This document shows positions 1,751-43,960 of a stretch of DNA of 64,000 nt, piece by piece. The notes beneath the pieces are model-generated. The model was not told the origin of the DNA. It was given only the letters and a program-made list of their open reading frames with translations, and did not search any database. This DNA comes from Ignavibacteriota bacterium (GTDB lineage Bacteria; Bacteroidota; Ignavibacteria; UBA10030): positions 1,016 through 65,015 of the forward strand of contig JAKEEG010000091.1 of NCBI GenBank assembly GCA_022616555.1, given 5' to 3'. How positions within the stretch are numbered: the stretch's first letter is position 1; each line of letters begins with the position of its first letter. A program made the position numbers and the translations under genes.

Positions 1751-2419
1751 TCAGCTACGTTCACGATTTGCGGAGTAAGCAACAACACAAAATAGTTTGC
1801 CCACAGAATGAATTTCAAATCGCTGGAAGCCGGCTTCGCGCAACACGGCGACAAGTTTTTTCTTCGTGTAGAAATAGACTGGGCAACCTCTCAGCCCCAG
1901 CCGAATTTTTCGGACAGGCGCCCGCCACGTCCAGAACCGTGGAAAGGAAAGAATTACTCTATCAGTCGTGACCTGTTTCATTTTTTGCAGTACTGGTACC
2001 GCATCCTGAATATAGTCAAACAGTCCGATGCCGATAGAAATATCAAATATATCATTCACGGCATATTCCAACAAATCACTTTGTATAAACGAGCATCGGT
2101 CCTGTACGCCTTTCGCAGTCGCAAATTGCGTGCAGAGTTCTAACATATTCTTAGCGATATCAATGCCGGTGACATGCTTCGCTCCCCTGAGCGCAAATTC
2201 CACTGCATAAAGACCGTTTCCGCAGCCGACATCAAGAAAAGTCCTGTTTTCAATAGGTGCTGAATGCTCAAGCGTAAACAAAAACCGCTCATACATATCT
2301 TTCCTAAAGAATTTATCCAGCCAAACGGACAAAGGGGATTTTTCGTGCGAGTAGATTTTTTGAAATGAATCCGCTTCGCTATCCCAGTAGGTCATTTGTG
2401 TTTTGATTTCAGACTTCAT
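1751..2419 (-). CDS. Class I SAM-dependent methyltransferase
   Basis: Motif I LDVGCGNGLYAVEFA and a Rossmann-like layout; the 10-bp overlap with the downstream gene suggests an operon. Confidence 0.75.
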   Translation of the reverse strand: MKSEIKTQMTYWDSEADSFQKIYSHEKSPLSVWLDKFFRKDMYERFLFTLEHSAPIENRTFLDVGCGNGLYAVEFALRGAKHVTGIDIAKNMLELCTQFATAKGVQDRCSFIQSDLLEYAVNDIFDISIGIGLFDYIQDAVPVLQKMKQVTTDRVILSFPRFWTWRAPVRKIRLGLRGCPVYFYTKKKLVAVLREAGFQRFEIHSVGKLFCVVAYSANRERS

Positions 2420-3236
2420 TCCTTAATACCTCCCGTACAGTCGTAAATCGAAAATCATTCAGGAGCTTTCTCATTTTTTTCTCAGTATGCTCAAGGCCAT
2501 AATAATGCCGAATACGTTTAGAGAACGGCAAGCGTACCCGCGGCTGACCGGGGTCCAATTCCCACGGGTGGATATAAAAAATAACCGGTCGCCCCTGTGC
2601 GTTGCATTGGCGCAGCGCTTGTTGCGTGTAGAGATACGGCGCCAGTCTCAAATAAGCGCCGCCACAACAAGGCAGTCTCTGTCCGAACATTTCCGCACAC
2701 GATAGCGGGAACTCCACCAATGACGGCGTAACTTGATACGGCGCCAGCGGGGCATCCGAAATACCGTAATCAGGGTGAAACCCAATTGGGAACACCGAAG
2801 AATCGTACCAAAACCCTTGTTGTTCGAGAATCGGGAAAGCCCACATCGTTTGCTTGGTAATGCTGAACGACGGAGCGCGAAAACCCCCCAAATGCTGTTT
2901 CACTCCACACTGGCGCACGGCTTCCACCGCCCTCTGCAGGTCCATGCTAAATTCATCCCTGCTAATCTTCGTCAGTTGGAGATGATAATAACCGTGAATG
3001 CCTATTTCATGTCCTTGCTGTTCAATTTCGCGAAGCAAATGTGGAACACGTTCGGCAACCCACCCTAATGCAAAAAATGTCGCCTTCACATTCGATGCCT
3101 CAAAAAGATTCAATAGCCGATGGGTGTTCTGTTCGACGCGAAGCTCGCACCGGTGCCATTGTTCCCGCGGGATCTTCTCGTTAAGATTGGATACGCAGAA
3201 CCAATCTTCGAGGTCAACGGTCATGGCGTTATTCAT
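2409..3236 (-). CDS. Polysaccharide deacetylase family protein (PEP-CTERM/EPS-locus type)
   Basis: NodB-like motifs (TVDLEDWF, FFALGWVAE, HEIGIHGYYH). The likely start is MNNAM at 3236, overlapping the GT4 stop as TAATG. Confidence 0.8.
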   Translation of the reverse strand: MNNAMTVDLEDWFCVSNLNEKIPREQWHRCELRVEQNTHRLLNLFEASNVKATFFALGWVAERVPHLLREIEQQGHEIGIHGYYHLQLTKISRDEFSMDLQRAVEAVRQCGVKQHLGGFRAPSFSITKQTMWAFPILEQQGFWYDSSVFPIGFHPDYGISDAPLAPYQVTPSLVEFPLSCAEMFGQRLPCCGGAYLRLAPYLYTQQALRQCNAQGRPVIFYIHPWELDPGQPRVRLPFSKRIRHYYGLEHTEKKMRKLLNDFRFTTVREVLRNEV

Positions 3237-4402
3237 TAGGATCTCTTGTGATTCAGGAGCGGTTGCATTGCATTGAGAAAGCGGTCGGCGAGAAGATCCC
3301 ATGTATACGTCGAGAGCACCAACTGCCTACCATGCTCGATTCTCTTTTGCTTTTCTGTTGGGTCATCCAAAATCGAGCGGATTTGGTCCATAACTTCTTC
3401 TAGTGTGTCCGCGTAATAAAATATCTCTCCGCGCTCATCAATGCGCAGTAATCCAAACAATCTAGTGGAAACAATCGGCTTACCGTTAATTAAGTACTCG
3501 AACACCTTGATAGGAGACGCAGCATGAGCGATCTCTCCCTTTTTTCGTAAGTTGAGACAAACCTGCATTTCCGAAATATACTTCATCGCCTGTGGATGCG
3601 GTACCGCACCTGTGAGCACTACGTTATTCAATTGCTTCTTGACAACGAGTTCTTTAATCCGAGGGAAATCACGCCCGGCTCCCACAAACAGGAATGCGCA
3701 ATCGTTCATCCGTTCGGCGACGGTAAGCATCAAATCCAAATCAATCGAATATTCGAATGCACCTACATATCCCACGACAGGCTTGGACTTGTTCACACGC
3801 AGCTCCGTTGTCTCACGAAATTCAGCAGGAACATCAGCACCGTTGGAGATAACAATTTTCGAGTTATTCTGGATTTTTTCTTCTAAAACTTTCGAAACAG
3901 CCACCACGAGAGAGGATTTCTCAAACATCTTACGGAGCATCCAAACGCTCAATCGCGAGAGAATGTTTGTAGGCGAAATTTGTAACTCATGCTGCAACAT
4001 TGATACATAATCATCTGCATAATCAAAAACGATCGGCATGGAATTTCCGAGCGTATAGAGATATAGCGGGAAATTGTTCAGGATCAACACATCGGGTTGA
4101 TGCACCCTGATAAGGTATCGAAGTACGAAAAATGTTTTTATCGTGTAGAAAGCCTTCTTGAAAATTTTATCCACCGGGAATTTTGTATTCCAGAACCAGG
4201 GAGAAATGGGCACAGTGTGCAAGACGATGTTTTTATGTACTTGCGCCGGGATTTCTATGTAATTTGTTTCTTCGGACTCCCGGGGAGGAGGCTGAATGAC
4301 AATGACCGTATGACCCTTTTCCGCAAACTTCTTAAACAGGTGATGCCATCGGGAATGGTTGGCCGAATTCCACCGCGCCATATAGGGAAAAATAATTTTC
4401 AT
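3236..4402 (-). CDS. Glycosyltransferase family 4 (GT-B fold)
   Basis: 388 aa. The C-terminal half carries the GT4 EX7E-like region (…VGAFEYSIDLDL…GEIFYYADTLEE…) and it sits in operon context with other EPS genes. Confidence 0.85.
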   Translation of the reverse strand: MKIIFPYMARWNSANHSRWHHLFKKFAEKGHTVIVIQPPPRESEETNYIEIPAQVHKNIVLHTVPISPWFWNTKFPVDKIFKKAFYTIKTFFVLRYLIRVHQPDVLILNNFPLYLYTLGNSMPIVFDYADDYVSMLQHELQISPTNILSRLSVWMLRKMFEKSSLVVAVSKVLEEKIQNNSKIVISNGADVPAEFRETTELRVNKSKPVVGYVGAFEYSIDLDLMLTVAERMNDCAFLFVGAGRDFPRIKELVVKKQLNNVVLTGAVPHPQAMKYISEMQVCLNLRKKGEIAHAASPIKVFEYLINGKPIVSTRLFGLLRIDERGEIFYYADTLEEVMDQIRSILDDPTEKQKRIEHGRQLVLSTYTWDLLADRFLNAMQPLLNHKRS

Positions 4403-4408
4403 GTAGTG

Positions 4409-5611
4409 CTATTCCTGTACAACCGCTTTCCTGGCTTGGAGATATACTTTCTCAAATTCTTCTGCGATACGTTCCCAGCGATAGTGGCTAACCGCAAGCC
4501 GATAAGCGTTCTCGGCGAGTTTCTTCCGGAGCGGGGAATTTCTCAGAAGCCTTACCACCTGCGAAGCGAATTGTTGTTCAGTATCAGCAACCAGAAGATG
4601 CTCGTTATCTTTTCCGAGAATACCTTCGCATCCGATGGAGGTTGAAACAACGGGGACGCCCATGGCAAAGCTTTCTACAATCTTGAGCCGCATCCCGCCA
4701 CCAATCCTCAGCGGAACAACGGCTAATTCGTACCGCTGCAGTTCATCTTTGATATCCGGGACAAATCCGCGAATAACTATCTGCCGGCTGTTCATCTGTT
4801 GCACATTTGGCGGGATGTTCTTGCCAATGATATGCAATACCGAGTCGGGCTGTTCCTGTTGAATTTTTGGAAAAATTCCGGAAAGAAACCACATCAGAGC
4901 GTCCTTGTTAGGAAGCCAAGCAAAATTCCCAACCAAAGCAATCGATGATGGCAATTTATCCTGCACAGATGGAGACTCGAAATAACGCTCCTCCACACCC
5001 GCCGGAATTGTATGTGTCTTGACGTTCGGATTAAGCTGCCGCAGCCGCAATGTGTCGTTTTCGGTTATTGTGCAGCACATATCGAACTGCGCTGTCATCT
5101 TCGCTTCGAACGCACGAATTCTGCGTGCCTGCATATCCAACCATTGGCGGAATACCGGCGTGTGATTGTTCTCTGCGTAACGCTCCAGTATTGCACTCTC
5201 AACATTGTGCTCGCGCAACACGATGGGTAAACCAAACTGTTGCTTGCAATAAACCCCGTATGGCGACATGTGTAAATGGTCAACGTGAACAACGTCAAAC
5301 GTTTGCGACGCCAATATGTTGCGCAGCGAGTCCAGGTATAGCGGCGATACATATTTCTGGATATTGTAAGACATATCTGAAAAAAGATTCTTCAATGCCG
5401 CAAAAACGTTATTCTTATTGGAATGTGGCACAGTAACCAATTCGCATACATCTTCGAGAGGTTTTCGCTCCTCCGCCCGCGTTTGCTCTAGCGCGAGCAT
5501 CGTAATCTGATGACCGCGCTTGGCGAGATGCTTCGTTATGTTAAATATACCAACTTTTCCCCCGTCTGTGAGAGGATAAGGAACTTGTGGGGAGAGCTGG
5601 AGAATATTCAT
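4409..5611 (-). CDS. Glycosyltransferase family 4
   Basis: 400 aa with the N-terminal motif LTDGGKVGIFNITKHLAKRGHQITMLAL, typical of GT4 N-domains, and a C-terminal GT1/GT4 domain. Confidence 0.85.
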   Translation of the reverse strand: MNILQLSPQVPYPLTDGGKVGIFNITKHLAKRGHQITMLALEQTRAEERKPLEDVCELVTVPHSNKNNVFAALKNLFSDMSYNIQKYVSPLYLDSLRNILASQTFDVVHVDHLHMSPYGVYCKQQFGLPIVLREHNVESAILERYAENNHTPVFRQWLDMQARRIRAFEAKMTAQFDMCCTITENDTLRLRQLNPNVKTHTIPAGVEERYFESPSVQDKLPSSIALVGNFAWLPNKDALMWFLSGIFPKIQQEQPDSVLHIIGKNIPPNVQQMNSRQIVIRGFVPDIKDELQRYELAVVPLRIGGGMRLKIVESFAMGVPVVSTSIGCEGILGKDNEHLLVADTEQQFASQVVRLLRNSPLRKKLAENAYRLAVSHYRWERIAEEFEKVYLQARKAVVQE

Positions 5612-5654
5612 TTTTAATTAGTGCTTAACTTACTTTTTTTGCAAAACTTGAAGA

Positions 5655-6908
5655 TCAAGCACTTATGGCGCCAAATGTTTTCCATGTTCCCGGGCTACCA
5701 GCTGTAACACATACCCAACCTATAGTGCCACCGGCAGATGGCGTAGTGTTATAAATAACATCACCTCTCGTCCATGTTCCTGATCCAGGGGACGCAGTTC
5801 CATAGAATATTCGGACACCATTCGTAATAAGGCCTACACGTTCTGTATCAAGACGCGTTTTACATGTCACACCACTGCCATCCAAATGAATAACAGAGCT
5901 CCCACTGCTATAAGAAATGAATGTATTTCCACCAGTTGGCAACATTGTCTGATTTATTGTTACTGTAGCTCCAGTTTGAACTATCATGTTATAACTATCC
6001 CGTGGTGTAACAAAATTTTCAAATCGACAGCCATTTAAAGATACCTTGGATGCCTCAAACCACAAATACGCTCGAGTACCACCGGTAACACCATCGATAT
6101 CATATGTTCGGAATCCATTTACAACCCCCTCTGTGTACAAAAACTGTAAAACCTCTCCGGTAACATCTTCAGTTCCACAACCATTTAATGTAATTCCGTG
6201 ACAAACATCAAACTTGTAGGCTGCAGTTGTAATGTGGTCACTGCCACAACTATTGAAGGTCGAGTAAACAAGTCCGTAAATATCATACCCGATAGAACTG
6301 GTGTTCGCAAAAACACGTGTTGCTGTCAAAGTCGTGCCAGTTCCTGCGTTAGATCCATCGTTTGCATACTTCAACGCACTAGTACAAGTAAAAACTTCAA
6401 ACGCTTCTATAATTGTCAGCCATGAATCGTAAGTAAAGAAACCAAAGTTACAGTCGATAGAAATAACGTTTCTTATCGTAAGGTAAGCAGTCCTTGGGGC
6501 ATAAATTGCATATGTATTGTCCGTTGTATGTCCCTGCAGGGTAAGGTTCTCAATGATGATATTGTACCCATAATCGTTATCAGGGTGATCAATGCTAAGC
6601 AGGCTGTCAACAACAAAAGAATCTGTTACCGTTCCTCCACGAGCGGCTCGATTGGGAGTTGAACCGTTTGTATTAGTCGTTTTCTTTATAATCGTACCTC
6701 TGCAATTATTGCCGGTGAGACTTATACGGCCGTTTACGGGTAAGCGCAGAGGAGAAGTAATTTTATACGTTCCATCGGGAAAATATACTACACCATTAGT
6801 ACTCGCAGCTGCATTTATAGCATTCTGTATACTTGTTGTGTCATCCGTCATTCCGTTGCCTGCAGCCGAGTAATCTGTCTTTACGTTATATACATTGAAC
6901 GTTCCCAT
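5655..6908 (-). CDS. Right-handed beta-helix / pectate-lyase-superfamily protein (possible polysaccharide depolymerase or glycanase)
   Basis: The N-terminus (DYSAAGNGMTDDTTSIQNAINAAASTNGVVYFPDGTYKITSPLRL) is the classic pectate-lyase-3-like signature. Composition is Gly/Thr/Asn-rich and repetitive, and GC is lower than in flanking genes. Confidence 0.6.
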   Translation of the reverse strand: MGTFNVYNVKTDYSAAGNGMTDDTTSIQNAINAAASTNGVVYFPDGTYKITSPLRLPVNGRISLTGNNCRGTIIKKTTNTNGSTPNRAARGGTVTDSFVVDSLLSIDHPDNDYGYNIIIENLTLQGHTTDNTYAIYAPRTAYLTIRNVISIDCNFGFFTYDSWLTIIEAFEVFTCTSALKYANDGSNAGTGTTLTATRVFANTSSIGYDIYGLVYSTFNSCGSDHITTAAYKFDVCHGITLNGCGTEDVTGEVLQFLYTEGVVNGFRTYDIDGVTGGTRAYLWFEASKVSLNGCRFENFVTPRDSYNMIVQTGATVTINQTMLPTGGNTFISYSSGSSVIHLDGSGVTCKTRLDTERVGLITNGVRIFYGTASPGSGTWTRGDVIYNTTPSAGGTIGWVCVTAGSPGTWKTFGAISA

Positions 6909-7093
6909 TGTGAATCTCCATGTGGTTATTTTTTTGTAGCGGACTATTTTTCGGGCTTCACAAGAGGGCTAAAATTGTTAGCAAACTTAGCCGTAATCGC
7001 GGTTACGTAATAGGAATGCTTAGCAACCTCTACCTCCTCCAAAAAAAATTAGCCCCAACAGCGATAGCATATATGATACCATTTTTTAAAACA

Positions 7094-7747
7094 TTAGAAT
7101 CGATTTTTTCTCGCAAAAACAAAATCTGCAAACCCCAAAATATCCCAAAATACACTTCCCGGTACATACCCTTGAGTTATTTTGGTGAAAACAATTTTTA
7201 CTGGAGTAAGTAGAACCCGTAGCCAATCCCTCCTGACGCCACTCTTCAATACTTGGAATTTATTCTCAGGGAGGATAGAACTAATTTCTTCAACAGTAAA
7301 TATTCTGCAATGCGTCGGGTCGTCATAGAAATTCAACGTGTCTCTTTTACTAGGGAATCGCGTGCTCCGTTTAGAAGGGAATTCGACATAGATAAACCCT
7401 CCGGATTTTAACTTATTCAATAGTAATCGAAGTACTTCATCCCCGTTATGTAGATGCTCAATTACATGTGACATTATGATAACATCAAAAAAATTTTCTG
7501 GAATCAATGTAAAATCGAGCACTGTAAGATCGAGCTCATAAAACTCGGTCATCGCCTCAAAATCCGATGCGTCATTATTGTAGGATTTTTCTTTGTCGAT
7601 TCCATAATAATCACATAAAGGGAACCATTGCTTGGTTATTGTAGCTGAATGGCTTCCAGCCCCAACATCTAACAATGAAAACTTCCTTCCGCTGTATATT
7701 TTCCGCAGTTCTTTAAAACGTGTCGGGACTAATACTGACATATTCAT
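7094..7747 (-). CDS. Class I SAM-dependent methyltransferase
   Basis: Motif I LLDVGAGSHSAT, followed by DVIIMSHVIEHL and GGFIYVEFP, typical of Methyltransf_11/23. The gene is AT-rich. Confidence 0.7.
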   Translation of the reverse strand: MNMSVLVPTRFKELRKIYSGRKFSLLDVGAGSHSATITKQWFPLCDYYGIDKEKSYNNDASDFEAMTEFYELDLTVLDFTLIPENFFDVIIMSHVIEHLHNGDEVLRLLLNKLKSGGFIYVEFPSKRSTRFPSKRDTLNFYDDPTHCRIFTVEEISSILPENKFQVLKSGVRRDWLRVLLTPVKIVFTKITQGYVPGSVFWDILGFADFVFARKNRF

Positions 7748-38034: not shown

Positions 38035-38838
38035 TTAGGCGGGAGAAAGACGTTGCATAATATCTGTTGCAAACTCAATGTTTAGCTGACCGAGTGAAAA
38101 AGTAATCGGGTTATCCTTCTTTCGTAGTCGCGGTTCAGGCATTTGATCATATGTCCGTCCGTCAAGCACTCTCCCCGTCGCCTTTTTATTTAAACCGCCC
38201 CACTGCTTAAAGAAGAATTTTACTTTATGCCCTTTGCATAGCCCTCTGATTTGACGAACCCACTCTGGTTTTATCGGACGTGCATGAGGTCCCGATTCTC
38301 CACCAACAATGACCCAGTCAATTCCTTCAAGCGGCAAGTACGGTATTGGGGCTATCAACGGCTCGACAGATAAGAACCTCACAGCAGCAGGAACTTTAGC
38401 TAGTTGCTGAACGCGAAAAACATACTCAGGCGATTCTACACTTACCCCCATCCACACATTTTCAGGCCAAGGTAACCTCGATGAAATCTCAAGCAAACGA
38501 TCAGACCGCTTTGTAAGGATTTGAAACGTGTGCCAGTGAGCTTTCTGCATAGTAGCAAATACCTGAGCGATAAAAAACTCAGGCACCTCTTTGTGGAACA
38601 GGTCGCTCATGGAGTTAACAAAAATGACCTTCGGTTCTTTCCAACGAAGTGGCAAGCTGACAAGGTCGTGGTGGAGCGTTACTTCAAAGCCGTTACGATA
38701 GCGATACGAGCCCATCGCTTTCAAACGCTCCGCCATACGCTCCGCGTAGCAATGCTTGCAACCCGGACTAACTTTATCACACCCTGTTACCGGGTTCCAC
38801 GTCGCTTCAGTCCACTCGATTGATGATTGTTGCGCCAT
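38035..38838 (-). CDS. DUF5131 (phage Gp37/Gp68 family) three-Cys-motif protein
   Basis: N-terminal [27 protein letters not shown], a Cx6CxxC three-Cys motif characteristic of PF07505. The gene sits in an AT-shifted islet. Confidence 0.7.
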
Positions 38839-39676
38839 ATTGATTCTTATATTTTTTCACAATATCGTTTCCAATATTCACTGCAGTTCTATTATTGGAA
38901 GCAAGATATAAATGGTACATTGGTGACCGCCTCGAATTTTTCAGTTCGTACGGATTCGACACAAACTTAAATACTTCTTTAAGTCGGCTTTGATAAAGTT
39001 TTGCAGCTTTACCAATAGCATTAACTTCCTTTTCGCTTCTGGTAATATCATTAAACAGAGAGGGTATTTCAACGTAAAAATATTTCTTTACTTCCATTCT
39101 TGATAATCCTAAAAACTTTTCAAGCCGCTCTAACCAAGAGTCAGATATGTCACCATCGGTTTCTAATAGACGATTTACCCCTAACCCAGTAGGAACTAAA
39201 ACCCACAGATCCACTGGCAATTCTCTTAGCGATTCAATCGCGTTCCATTCTAACTGCATGCCACAAGGGTCGATATAAGCTAAAGTCCTATAGTGCGCGT
39301 TCTCCTTTTTTGACAGGAATTTTGATAAATCAAGTATTTTTTTATTACAATCTCCAGACACTGTATAAATTTCTTTTTCGGGAAAAGCGTCTTTAGTATT
39401 TTCTTTAAGAAGTTTAAAAGTCTTTGGATCTTTTTCAACGAAGTAATAGACATCAAAAGGTTTAGGATGACTAATTTCGAGTATTCTTCTGGCGGCTCCA
39501 ATGGTTACGTCAATTCCAAATTTGCTATCCTTAACAATAAAACCCGAACCTGCGAATCCGTCAAAGTACAATGTCTTAAAATACTTCCGTGTATTCATTA
39601 TCGTTAAGTAAGCATTCGCGTACTCAACAAGTATTTTAATTTTTATTTTTGTCCAGTTTCCTCCGAATTGCTTCAT
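38807..39676 (-). CDS. TcmP-like (three-Cys-motif partner protein) candidate; uncharacterised
   Basis: 289 aa, very AT-rich, directly upstream of and overlapping the DUF5131 gene. It contains FDGFAGSG (a SAM-MTase motif-I-like sequence) and IDPCG. The partner-family assignment is recalled from memory and was not searched. Confidence 0.5.
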
Positions 39677-40054
39677 TTCCTTCCTCGTAGGATTTTAAAG
39701 CGGATGATGGATACAATACGACATTTTTGTCATATTGTCAAATTAATAAATAGCATATTTGTCGAGAGCGAATAGAAAAGTGAACATAAAATATGAATTT
39801 GTTTACACATCGTCAAGTACACACCGTTACCCTTGCGCTTTTGAGCGCCTCAGAAAGACGTCTGGTCGTGGGCGATTTTGATGTGCGATATGTTTTTCTA
39901 TCTGGTTACTTCTATTGCTTGCCAATACCGTTCAACAGCAGCCCCGTAGGGGCAGGCGGGATGCTAGAAGCGCATTTCACTCAGCTTTCCTTATGATATC
40001 CTAATCGAAGGCGTCGCACCGAGGCAAAGAAGAAGTTGACGACAAATAGATTCA

Positions 40055-40275
40055 CTCGGCACGGCCAGCCAGGAGCATGCCCGCGGGACAGACCCGGGGA
40101 ATCCAGAGCCCGAAAACCGCGTTGAGCGGTTTTCGTGTCGTAGGCCCTTACAAAGGATTCCGTGAGGGACGCCTTGCGTTAGGAATAACCGGATGGTTTC
40201 TCGGGCATCGTGGCCACTCTGCCCAAGAACCGGAAATTCAATTTACCCAATATACAGTACCGAACCCCCGCTCGT
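40055..40275. other. GC-rich, hairpin-dense non-coding segment (candidate structured RNA or gene remnant)
   Basis: It has local hairpins (AAAACCGCgttgaGCGGTTTT and GGGCAtcgtggccactcTGCCC), GC content well above its AT-rich flanks, and no credible ORF. Confidence 0.3.
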
Positions 40276-40295
40276 CAATACAAGATTTGTAATTT

Positions 40296-40339
40296 GTTTG
40301 TACAATTTTGGTAAAAAGATTGTACAAATTTTGTAAAAC
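40296..40339. repeat. Tandem ~22-bp direct repeat containing the palindromic core TTGTACAA
   Basis: TTGTACAATTTTGGTAAAAAGA followed by TTGTACAAATTTTGTAAAACCG. The TTTTGTAA motif recurs again at 40376–40394. Confidence 0.7.
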
Positions 40340-40342
40340 CGC

Positions 40343-40369
40343 GTAGGGGCGTATAATATACGCCCCTAC
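40343..40369. repeat. REP-like palindrome GTAGGGGCGTATAATATACGCCCCTAC
   Basis: It has the same GTAGGGG…CCCCTAC arms as the RAYT-associated REPs and lies in the non-coding tail of the tcmP islet. Confidence 0.75.
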
Positions 40370-40487
40370 AAAAACATTTTGTAATTTTTACAATAATGTA
40401 ATTTCAATGAATACCAATATATACCGGGAAATGGTATTTGTCAACTCGAATTTTAGAAAAACTTTACTCGAAATTTAGAATACGTTG

Positions 40488-42790: not shown

Positions 42791-43960
42791 TCATTTCCCT
42801 ACCAGCTCGATTTCGTGTTCTACTTCATGCTCAGTGCGCTTTGGCACGTAGGCTTTTTTCTTCTGGCCGTTGCGCTTGCGCATGTATTTCTCTTCCGGGA
42901 CTGGTAATTCCGGCTCGGTCTCTGGCACATCGGGATAGGTATAGACTTCGTACTTGAAATTACGGAGCAGAATATCGTTCCCGTTCCTGCCCAGGACATA
43001 CTGCGGCAGGAGGGGTATTTTCCCTCCCCCACCCGGAGCGTCAATGACAAAATACGGCACGGCAAGTCCGGATGTATGTCCGCGCAGCTTGTCCATAATC
43101 TCCAGGCCAACACGCACCGGCGTGCGGAAATAATTCGTGCCTTTCGTAATGTCCGCCTGATATATATAGTACGGACGCACGCGCATTTTGAGAAGCTTGC
43201 GGTGAAGCTCCAGCATGACATCCGGGTCGTCGTTGACACCCTTCATCAACACAGCCTGGTTGCCGACTGGACAGCCCGCGTCGGCGAGCATCGCGCAGGC
43301 GCGTTCGGCTTCCGGCGTGCACTCCCACGGGTGGTTAAAATGCGTGTTAACATAAATAGGATGATACTTTTTGATCATCTTGCACAGCTTGGCTGTAATG
43401 CGCTGGGGAAGCACGCAGGGCATTTTGGTGCCGAGCCGTATGATTTCCACATGCGGGATGGCACGCAAACCGGCGAGAATACGCTCAAGCACATAGTCCG
43501 TCACCATCAGCGGGTCGCCGCCGGAAAGAACAACGTCGCGCACCTCGGGATGCGCAGCAATGTAGTCGATACCGTCCTGAATCCACTTGGAATTGATCTT
43601 ACTCGAATCGCTTACTTTCCGCTTACGAGTGCAGAAGCGGCAATACATGGAGCACTGGCTGGTGACCAAGAACAACACGCGGTCGGGATAGCGATGCGTG
43701 ATGCTCGGCACCGGGCTATCAGCTTCTTCGTTGAGCGGGTCCTCAGGAAAGCCGTCGTCTTCCAATTCTTTGGCGTCGGGAATACACTGCAGCCAGATCG
43801 GGTCGCCGGGGTAGCGAATCAAGCTGAGATAGTACGGATTGATCCGTGTGTGAAACAGCTTGTTCAGTTTTTCTGCGAGGTCCTTATCAAATCCAAATCT
43901 CTCAACTAAATCCTTGCTGCTATCGACGCTCTCCCGCAACAGCTCTTGCCAGAGTTCCAT
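42791..43960 (-). CDS. kamA: Lysine 2,3-aminomutase (radical SAM, PLP-dependent)
   Basis: CSMYCRFCTRK (the CxxxCxxC radical-SAM cluster) plus the KamA-family core; full-length similarity. Confidence 0.9.
   Translation of the reverse strand: MELWQELLRESVDSSKDLVERFGFDKDLAEKLNKLFHTRINPYYLSLIRYPGDPIWLQCIPDAKELEDDGFPEDPLNEEADSPVPSITHRYPDRVLFLVTSQCSMYCRFCTRKRKVSDSSKINSKWIQDGIDYIAAHPEVRDVVLSGGDPLMVTDYVLERILAGLRAIPHVEIIRLGTKMPCVLPQRITAKLCKMIKKYHPIYVNTHFNHPWECTPEAERACAMLADAGCPVGNQAVLMKGVNDDPDVMLELHRKLLKMRVRPYYIYQADITKGTNYFRTPVRVGLEIMDKLRGHTSGLAVPYFVIDAPGGGGKIPLLPQYVLGRNGNDILLRNFKYEVYTYPDVPETEPELPVPEEKYMRKRNGQKKKAYVPKRTEHEVEHEIELVGK

Follow-up and report, generated by a model that had tools for sequence, protein, structure and literature searches.

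What does the protein called TcmP do together with the three-cysteine protein whose gene overlaps its own? The question is raised by a locus in a 64,000-nucleotide stretch of contig JAKEEG010000091.1 from an Ignavibacteriota bacterium (assembly GCA_022616555.1), the whole of which we call the window. On its minus strand lie the tcmP gene, an open reading frame (ORF) of 289 codons, and a gene of the DUF5131 family (Table 1). A first-pass annotation had read two motifs in TcmP, FAGSG as the S-adenosylmethionine (SAM)-binding motif I and the Pro-Cys of IDPCG as the catalytic motif IV of C5-cytosine methyltransferases, and both are located within this ORF. We favour, with moderate confidence, SAM-dependent N-methylation of a flipped-out RNA or DNA base, coupled to radical chemistry that DUF5131 would perform on that substrate, a reading that rests on sequence comparison and structure prediction.

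Fold, conserved motifs and relatives of TcmP

TcmP belongs to the family defined by NCBIfam TIGR04474 (TcmP, three-Cys-motif partner protein), which it matched at 9.2e-41 (140.5 bits, cut-off 53), residues 7–276 covering profile positions 1–262 of 263. The protein is 100% identical to an NCBI-named TcmP protein of an Ignavibacteriae metagenome-assembled genome (MAG), and the PADLOC model PDC-M41A matches it at 2.6e-118. An AlphaFold2 (AF2) model built from an alignment of 133 sequences (A1) has a predicted local distance difference test score (pLDDT) of 93.9 and a predicted TM-score (pTM) of 0.91. Its beta-alpha-beta order places motifs I–IV directly after strands beta1–beta4, with strand E34–39 preceding GFAGSG. 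Class I methyltransferases are defined by alternating beta strands and alpha helices, a glycine-rich motif I that follows beta1, an acidic residue at the end of beta2 and an acidic or polar one after beta3, and the modelled protein has this class I Rossmann SAM-methyltransferase fold.

Comparison of such a model with solved structures, which the first-pass annotation had proposed as a check, bore out its expectation of a Rossmann methyltransferase. Foldseek against the PDB returned as best match 2oo3 (DUF519/RlmJ family; E 7.8e-6, probability 1.00, TM 0.50/0.54), a Legionella DUF519 protein that served as the molecular-replacement model for E. coli RlmJ (PMC3814359). Next came Trm1 (3axs, 2ejt and 2dul; E 1.7e-5 to 1.4e-4), followed by spermidine synthase, EgtD, the RsmD-like 2fhp, KsgA and METTL5. 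The top 50 PDB matches were mostly class I SAM-dependent methyltransferases and related SAM-utilising enzymes, with no C5-methyltransferase among them. A profile search of PDB sequences with TcmP gave weak matches to 2fhp (best, E 0.013) and 2oo3 over the motif II–IV region, and a single-sequence search of PDB sequences found no match for TcmP or DUF5131.

Because a lone FxGxG or Pro-Cys dipeptide could be due to chance, family-wide conservation is the real test of the two motifs. At least 2,229 clusters at 50% identity match the TcmP family at E ≤ 1e-3; 150 cluster representatives were collected, and the main conservation alignment combines the query with 124 full-length representatives of 50%-identity clusters, giving 125 sequences. 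In motif I, Y37 (119 of 125), D39 (122), F41 (121), A42 (119), G43 (124) and G45 (119) are near-invariant, which sustains its assignment as the SAM-binding loop. The other motifs are kept as well: position 81 (motif II) is Glu or Asp in 124 of the 125, position 109 (motif III) is Asp or Glu in 118, N111 occurs in 115, and in motif IV D136 is found in all 125, P137 in 124 and G139 in 119. On this alignment, the conservation of motif I and of the Asp-Pro pair is far beyond chance. Motif conservation is likewise seen in the 133 sequences of A1. Outside these motifs, K12 is conserved in 120 sequences, and strand beta5 keeps D156 (123), W158 (114) and P162 (122). Position 61 is Ser in 98 and Ala in 14 sequences, the family consensus being G-S and that of the window clade G-A.

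The Pro-Cys dipeptide fared differently. The family consensus of this region is F-L-D-P-[YF]-G-M, and at position 138, 60 of the 125 sequences have Tyr, 55 have Phe and just 5 have Cys; in some members the aromatic residue is replaced by Cys, Lys, Ala, His or Leu. Cys138 is kept in 118 of the 120 closest homologues (65–100% identity), compared with 7 of the 150 cluster representatives. The dipeptide is thus no motif of the family: Cys has taken the place of an aromatic residue within one clade. Of the annotation's expectation that its motifs recur across TcmP homologues, motif I and the Asp-Pro pair held throughout the family and the Cys in the clade only.

In one protein (P0215, 437 aa) the N-terminal part of an N6_N4 DNA methylase (PF01555, 1.1e-15) appears to be fused to the last 170 residues of TcmP. 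At another locus (L001:3938-6858) a Type III methyltransferase gene lies directly upstream of TcmP, and P0215 may therefore be either an artefact of gene calling or a real fusion.

RlmJ is the only family with a significant profile-profile match to TcmP. The hhalign comparison of the TcmP profile gave E 8.2e-5 with E. coli RlmJ alone, and a probability of 96.1% and E 3.3e-9 over 128 columns with ten aligned RlmJ sequences, one from E. coli and the others from nine plasmid or chromid records. The Pfam RlmJ model found no match in TcmP at E ≤ 0.1, and the two results together therefore indicate a homologous superfamily and not the same family. The proteins share the motif order (N-terminal helix, I, II, III, IV), a motif I of the form Y-[IL]-D-x-[FH]-A-G-x-G, a G-S pair before helix A, an acidic motif II, a motif III Asp, an Asp-Pro motif IV and a beta5 Trp. 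In the alignment, Y-F-D39-G-F41-A-G43-S-G45 of TcmP corresponds to Y-L-D40-T-H42-A-G44-A-G46 of RlmJ, G60-A/S61 to G99-S100, E81 to E118, D109 to D143, and D136-P137-(gap)-C/Y/F138 to D164-P165-P166-Y167; W158 aligns tentatively, in the single-sequence and global hhalign alignments, with W195.

The roles of these residues are known from crystal structures of RlmJ (YhiR), the 23S rRNA m6A2030 methyltransferase: H42 packs on the adenine of SAM, S100 binds its methionine moiety, E118 contacts the ribose hydroxyls, D143 contacts adenine N6, W195 stacks on the base, K18 is essential for catalysis with D15 as its positioning partner, and D164 is catalytic, D164A abolishing activity (PMC3814359). RlmJ Y4 and H6 have no clear counterpart in TcmP, and the C-terminal ~120 residues of TcmP do not align with RlmJ. 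The two also differ in setting: TcmP is accessory, often carried on mobile DNA and always coupled to a radical-SAM-type gene, whereas RlmJ is a solitary housekeeping gene. From these alignments, we assign TcmP to a sister family of RlmJ, on the RlmJ-like branch of the amino-group (N-) methyltransferases and outside the RlmJ family itself.

The other close structural relatives, Trm1 (tRNA m2,2G26) and the RsmD-like m2G methyltransferases (2fhp), are likewise amino-group (N2-guanine) enzymes with an Asp-Pro motif IV, and they have no significant sequence-profile relationship to TcmP beyond the core. Trm1 differs from TcmP in motif I and has a large C-terminal tRNA-binding domain that TcmP lacks. 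Its motif IV reads D-P-F-G, the TcmP-consensus form. The first-pass proposal of DNA or RNA modification in place of a structural phage role is therefore upheld in part: the nearest relatives are nucleic-acid methyltransferases, and the C5 type falls away.

The DUF5131 partner and its linkage to TcmP

The first-pass annotation had also taken the neighbouring gene to encode a Cys-motif partner, and the DUF5131 protein proved to be a real and tightly linked one. Its family is large (more than 8,000 clusters at 90% identity). C20 and C27 of the triad are invariant and C30 is conserved at 90% or more in 78 sequences, all three are invariant in a set of 120, and the protein has an invariant GGESG segment. 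RadicalSAM.org lists DUF5131 as radical SAM subgroup Megacluster 5-2, beside spore photoproduct lyase in 5-3 (PMC9477430). The window protein reached 74 bits against NCBIfam TIGR04471 (rSAM_mob_pairA), below the cut-off of 355; a profile search of PDB sequences gave weak matches only, and no PDB fold match lay at or below E 1e-3. A radical-SAM assignment of DUF5131 is plausible. We know of no report that pairs spore photoproduct lyase with a methyltransferase-fold protein.

Linkage of the two genes was traced in 80 genome loci from different species, the best of roughly 500 or more, mostly from Bacteroidota and with TcmP 52–70% identical. DUF5131 adjoins TcmP in 79 of the 80; in 78 it lies directly downstream on the same strand with a junction of −28 to +27 nt, and in the single locus lacking it the contig ends 35 nt after TcmP. 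Among viral loci in IMG/VR, where TcmP is only 25–31% identical, DUF5131 is adjacent in 18 of 19, mostly in convergent orientation. The genes adjoin each other in a cyanophage, too, and on a plasmid of Leisingera; on S. meliloti pSymA they are convergent and about 1.4 kb apart. Directly upstream of the closest relatives of the window DUF5131 (70–79% identity; Nitrospirae, NC10, Manganitrophaceae) stand TcmP-like genes in several forms: a 254-aa one, a 371-aa PDC-M30A-like one and a split one. The 371-aa variant, of PDC-M30A type, links the pair with the PDC-M30 candidate and adjoins DUF5131 in a Manganitrophaceae MAG.

Where DUF5131 is missing, another radical SAM gene takes its place. On a Nostoc plasmid (L083:5823-6797) and in a viral contig (L104:9156-9785), TcmP stands beside a SplB/PA0069-like radical SAM gene whose product is 25–28% identical to the PA0069-family protein of Bacteroidota; the replacement is related to the SOS-regulated SplB-like radical SAM genes (COG1533; PA0069 / Rv2578c). 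NCBIfam has families for both members of a "radical SAM mobile pair", protein A being DUF5131-like and protein B PA0069-like. Linkage that persists across orientation changes, down to 25% identity and through a swap of partner argues for joint function, and these gene arrangements suggest that both radical SAM types belong with TcmP to one functional module. No third gene is universally conserved across the 80 loci, whose neighbours are heterogeneous.

The phage background implied by the first-pass annotation is weak for TcmP: just 2 of the 50,697 phage genome records contain it, and it had no match in a PHROG search. DUF5131 alone is present in 181 phage genomes.

Within the window, the TcmP gene runs into the first codons of the DUF5131 gene, which makes translational coupling, or co-translation, likely. 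The closest relatives of the window TcmP are Bacteroidota proteins (about 70% identity), and those of the window DUF5131 (70–79%) come from Nitrospirae, NC10, Planctomycetota and Manganitrophaceae; compared with the DUF5131 proteins encoded beside those Bacteroidota TcmPs, the latter has an identity of only 48–63% (75% in L009). Separate histories of the two genes could account for this, as could a much slower rate of evolution in DUF5131. In two Nitrospirae loci (L105:4449-4892 and L106:302-1062) the TcmP-like gene is split into ORFs of 121 and 147 aa beside an intact DUF5131 gene; the split may reflect a frameshift, pseudogene formation or a gene encoded in two pieces.

Genomic neighbourhoods and the window locus

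The SOS association is the most informative new lead. A Y-family polymerase, LexA/UmuD, PA0069-family radical SAM or LigT gene occurs around the pair in 22 of the 80 loci, and in 13 a PA0069-family gene stands directly upstream of TcmP. The Bacteroidetes LexA box, CTAA-N5-TTAG, is experimentally supported, and splB (COG1533) is listed as an SOS gene, in a paper that mentions neither TcmP nor DUF5131 (PMC8565304). This box lies in the promoter or divergent intergenic region of the pair-containing operon in 13 loci, against a background of 0.046 sites per kb; it is 34 nt upstream of TcmP in L076 and 144 nt upstream in L012.

A recurrent Bacteroidota cassette (L031, L032, L036 at 1811-7590, L043, L064, L067, L069, L072 and L077) has a umuD-like S24 peptidase and a umuC-like Y-family polymerase divergent from LigT-PA0069-TcmP-DUF5131, with the LexA box in the shared intergenic region. 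It includes one or two LigT (2H phosphoesterase) genes, a PA0069 radical SAM gene (NF033668, about 1e-140) and sometimes an ORF of 122 aa. The order lexA-TcmP-DUF5131 occurs in L021, L040 and L044, and dinB-TcmP-DUF5131 in L003, L017 and L018, a DnaE2-like polymerase following in the last. Further downstream lie DUF72 and then dinB (L040), an AP_endonuc_2 TIM-barrel protein (L032) or a DnaE2-like gene (L044), and the operons L040:5150-9828 and L044:5160-10278 accordingly read lexA-TcmP-DUF5131-(DUF72 or 290-aa ORF)-(dinB or DnaE2-like). We know of no substrate for SplB/DUF5131-type radical SAM enzymes of non-sporulating bacteria, and no link of TcmP or DUF5131 to the SOS regulon was found in the searchable literature.

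Two observations stand beside this pattern. Upstream of lexA in L044 and in L040, the latter a MAG of the class Ignavibacteria like the window, is an 18-bp palindrome, ACCATACA(G/A)ATGTATGGT, a possible LexA operator of that lineage. In a Manganitrophaceae MAG (L107:1-2281), genes for LexA, a Rad51/ImuA-like protein, DUF8156 and a family-B DNA polymerase lie about 1.6 kb from a PDC-M30A-like TcmP-DUF5131 pair, which by gene content is an SOS-type neighbourhood outside Bacteroidota.

In the window, the neighbours of the low-GC islet that holds the TcmP gene are housekeeping genes, lptF-lptG on one side and genes for a DUF3078 protein, an M24 peptidase and a KamA-like protein on the other, and no att-like repeats were found flanking it. 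By composition and promoter consensus, the pair stands alone as a low-GC insertion with a predicted promoter of its own. The features of the locus are collected in Table 1.

Table 1. Features of the TcmP-DUF5131 locus in window coordinates (residue numbers refer to the protein named; aa, amino acids)
Feature	Position	Strand	Basis
TcmP gene, 289 aa, predicted RlmJ-like class I SAM-methyltransferase-fold protein	38807..39676	(-)	ORF, TIGR04474, PDC-M41A, AF2, Foldseek, hhalign
TcmP N-terminal helix region, aa 4-23, conserved G5, G6, W8, T9, K12, Y19, Y23	39608..39667	(-)	conservation
TcmP motif I, aa 37-46, loop after strand beta1, predicted SAM-binding, glycine-rich	39539..39568	(-)	at least 95% conserved; aligns to RlmJ 38-YLDTHAGAG-46
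TcmP G60-A61, equivalent of RlmJ G99-S100	39494..39499	(-)	G60 in 116/125; alignment
TcmP strand beta2 ending in E81 (motif II acidic residue, predicted ribose hydroxyl ligand)	39434..39451	(-)	conservation, alignment to RlmJ E118
TcmP motif III G108-D109-C110-N111, equivalent of RlmJ D143	39344..39355	(-)	conservation, alignment
TcmP motif IV region AYIDPCGMQ, aa 133-141	39254..39280	(-)	conservation, alignment to LIDPPYEM with a one-residue gap
TcmP strand beta5 D156-L-W158-V-L160-V-P162, candidate motif VI	39191..39211	(-)	conservation, alignment
DUF5131 / "phage Gp37/Gp68" three-Cys protein, 267 aa, radical-SAM-superfamily-like	38035..38838	(-)	PF07505 5.9e-100, PDC-M41B 8.4e-119, phrog_2045
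DUF5131 Cys triad C20-x6-C27-x2-C30, putative [4Fe-4S] ligands	38749..38781	(-)	conservation
32-nt overlap of TcmP gene end and DUF5131 gene start	38807..38838	(-)	coordinates
Sigma-70-like promoter TTGACA-17-TATTGT, 37 nt upstream of TcmP start codon	39713..39741	(-)	promoter scan, consensus match only
Low-GC islet over TcmP gene and junction	38600..39800		composition profile, GC 0.33-0.44 vs about 0.50-0.57 in flanks

A palindrome, GACAAAAATGTC (39720-39731), sits within the spacer of the predicted promoter and could be a candidate operator. Two Balneolales loci (L049 and L062) have TGACA-N6-TGTCA palindromes 40–60 nt upstream of TcmP, with half-sites that resemble GACAAAAATGTC and a different spacing. 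Across the 54 loci where TcmP appears as the first gene, no operator common to the upstream regions was found.

The 811-nt stretch upstream of TcmP (39677-40487) has no homology-supported ORF, no Rfam family and no remains of the usual neighbours as pseudogenes. In its centre (39800-40200) the GC content is host-like at about 0.52, and the stretch contains a near-repeat, TTGTACAA...TTGTACAA, at 40298-40330 and a hairpin, GTAGGGGCGTATAATATACGCCCCTAC, at about 40343-40369. No tRNA gene was found anywhere in the window. The KamA-like gene (42791-43960, minus strand), 3 kb from the pair, is a canonical radical SAM gene of lysine-2,3-aminomutase type with CxxxCxxC; it is probably a housekeeping gene unrelated to the pair.

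Weighing the explanations

In the N-methylation reading, TcmP would bind SAM and methylate an exocyclic amino nitrogen on a base flipped out of RNA or DNA, by N6-adenine-like and not C5-cytosine chemistry, and it would act on the same substrate as its obligatory neighbour DUF5131. Since operons with the pair carry LexA boxes in many Bacteroidota, the pathway probably repairs or modifies nucleic acids in connection with DNA damage. Its biological role may be damage repair or tolerance, self-marking and defence, or both.

A number of observations weigh against this reading. The Pfam scan assigned TcmP to no family and put no methyltransferase model above threshold, its sole match being a sub-threshold TRM5/TYW2 (E 0.015, 15.6 bits, cut-off 28), and the TM-scores against solved structures reach only about 0.5. 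Motif IV, DP[YF]G in the family and DPCG in the window, is one residue shorter than the DPPY of RlmJ and the general (D/N)PP(Y/F). Where RlmJ has a helical subdomain of roughly 50 residues, TcmP has a 14-residue loop (aa 46–59) modelled without a helix at pLDDT 72–82, an alignment gap of about 38 residues. The pairing of K12 with the essential K18 of RlmJ, and of E10 with D15 (motif X), is tentative and appears only in a low-confidence global hhalign alignment. Two pocket residues of the window clade deviate from the family consensus, A61 for Ser and C138 for Tyr/Phe, and the chemistry or activity could therefore be altered.

For the partner, the Cx6CxxC spacing departs from the canonical radical SAM CxxxCxxC, and Pfam Radical_SAM (PF04055) has no match in DUF5131. 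The AF2 model of DUF5131, with repeated beta-alpha units, reached a pLDDT of 79, which its shallower alignment may explain, and in Foldseek its best natural matches, five spore photoproduct lyase entries at ranks 2 and 4–7 among TIM-barrel proteins, are weak at E 0.016–0.03. As for the SOS link, half or more of the loci have unrelated or defence-type neighbours. In the window itself no SOS or defence gene adjoins the pair, homologues of LexA, Y-family polymerase, the PA0069-family radical SAM protein and LigT are absent from all 64 kb, and CTAA-N5-TTAG, GGA-N5-TCC, CTG-N10-CAG and GAAC-N4-GTTC boxes are all absent from the 811-nt gap. The searchable literature yielded no functional study of TcmP, DUF5131, PF07505 or PDC-M41 and no experimental data on any TcmP or DUF5131 protein.

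Among the alternatives, a C5-cytosine or other Cys-nucleophile nucleic-acid methyltransferase with the Pro-Cys of IDPCG as catalytic motif IV is extremely improbable. Motif I is genuine, and the retention of Cys138 within the clade suggests that it is probably under selection there, but the position is Tyr or Phe in 115 of the 125 family sequences and aligns with Y167 of the RlmJ DPPY. The Pfam C5 DNA_methylase model (PF00145) has no match at E ≤ 0.1, the top 50 folds hold no C5 enzyme, and counterparts of ENV (motif VI) and QxRxR (motif VIII) were not found on reading the TcmP sequence. On conservation, alignment and fold we rejected this identity, conservation alone largely refuting it. An ordinary housekeeping rRNA or tRNA methyltransferase, an RlmJ or Trm1 analogue unrelated to its neighbour, would suit the rRNA and tRNA enzymes found as closest structural and profile relatives. 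Such a role is nonetheless very unlikely for a gene of patchy distribution that lies in a low-GC islet in the window, occurs on plasmids and viral contigs, keeps strict DUF5131 adjacency whatever the orientation and across 25–70% sequence divergence, and falls short of the Pfam RlmJ and TRM models. TcmP might instead be an inert methyltransferase-fold subunit that binds SAM and/or recognises or flips a base for the radical-SAM enzyme, with no methyl transfer of its own. The shortened motif IV and its replaceable aromatic residue, the Ala in place of S61 in the window clade, the obligatory linkage to radical-SAM-type partners of two different families and the lack of a recognised separate target-recognition domain all speak for such a subunit. 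It seems unlikely, given SAM-binding residue classes that are near-invariant, a catalytic Asp present in every aligned sequence, and the alignment of the conserved K12 and W158 with RlmJ-essential residues; conservation of this kind is unusual for a pseudo-enzyme.

The pair may also be seen as a two-gene anti-phage system, PDC-M41, in which TcmP would label or detect nucleic acid while its radical-SAM partner would attack or alter the nucleic acid or nucleotides of the invader, in a restriction-modification- or viperin-like manner. Both proteins match the PDC-M41A and PDC-M41B models, which require adjacency, almost end to end. Copies lie beside BREX-1 on the Nostoc plasmid and beside Abi genes on the Leisingera plasmid, the S. 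meliloti copy adjoins and is co-regulated with Hna, other loci have Type III and IIG methyltransferases, DpdF or GajB-like helicases as neighbours, and the window gene sits in its low-GC islet. The PDC systems are, however, by their authors' own description 145 untested guilt-by-embedding candidates, nominated from BREX, DISARM or type I RM loci (bioRxiv 10.1101/2024.01.29.577857). An obvious effector such as a nuclease is lacking, phages commonly carry DUF5131 themselves and viral contigs hold the pair, the neighbours that recur most often serve SOS repair and mutagenesis under LexA boxes and not defence, and the window pair is embedded in no defence system. Such a two-gene defence system appears rather unlikely.

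Building on the N-methylation reading, we put forward tentatively, as a possibility, that TcmP and DUF5131 form an undescribed DNA-damage-induced pathway for the repair or modification of nucleic acids, joined in many genomes by a PA0069/SplB-like radical SAM enzyme and LigT-type 2H phosphoesterases, in which an RlmJ-like N-methyltransferase works with one or two spore-photoproduct-lyase relatives. It would be LexA-controlled in Bacteroidota and would have spread horizontally to defence islands, plasmids and phages. The motif IV Cys of the window clade could then serve radical chemistry, for example as a hydrogen-atom donor. In spore photoproduct lyase, C140 is such a donor, and the lyase structures matched by DUF5131 carry C140A/S mutations.

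The TcmP-DUF5131 pair is widespread and has a database name and a defence-candidate listing, with neither a fold assignment nor a function in the literature. The RlmJ-like amino-group methyltransferase reading points to SAM binding, to N-methylation of a base and to specific residues to mutate. The placement of the pair under LexA boxes with umuDC, dinB and SplB-like genes bears on the SOS-regulated SplB-like enzymes of bacteria that never make spore photoproduct, and the label of defence candidate may tell only part of the story.

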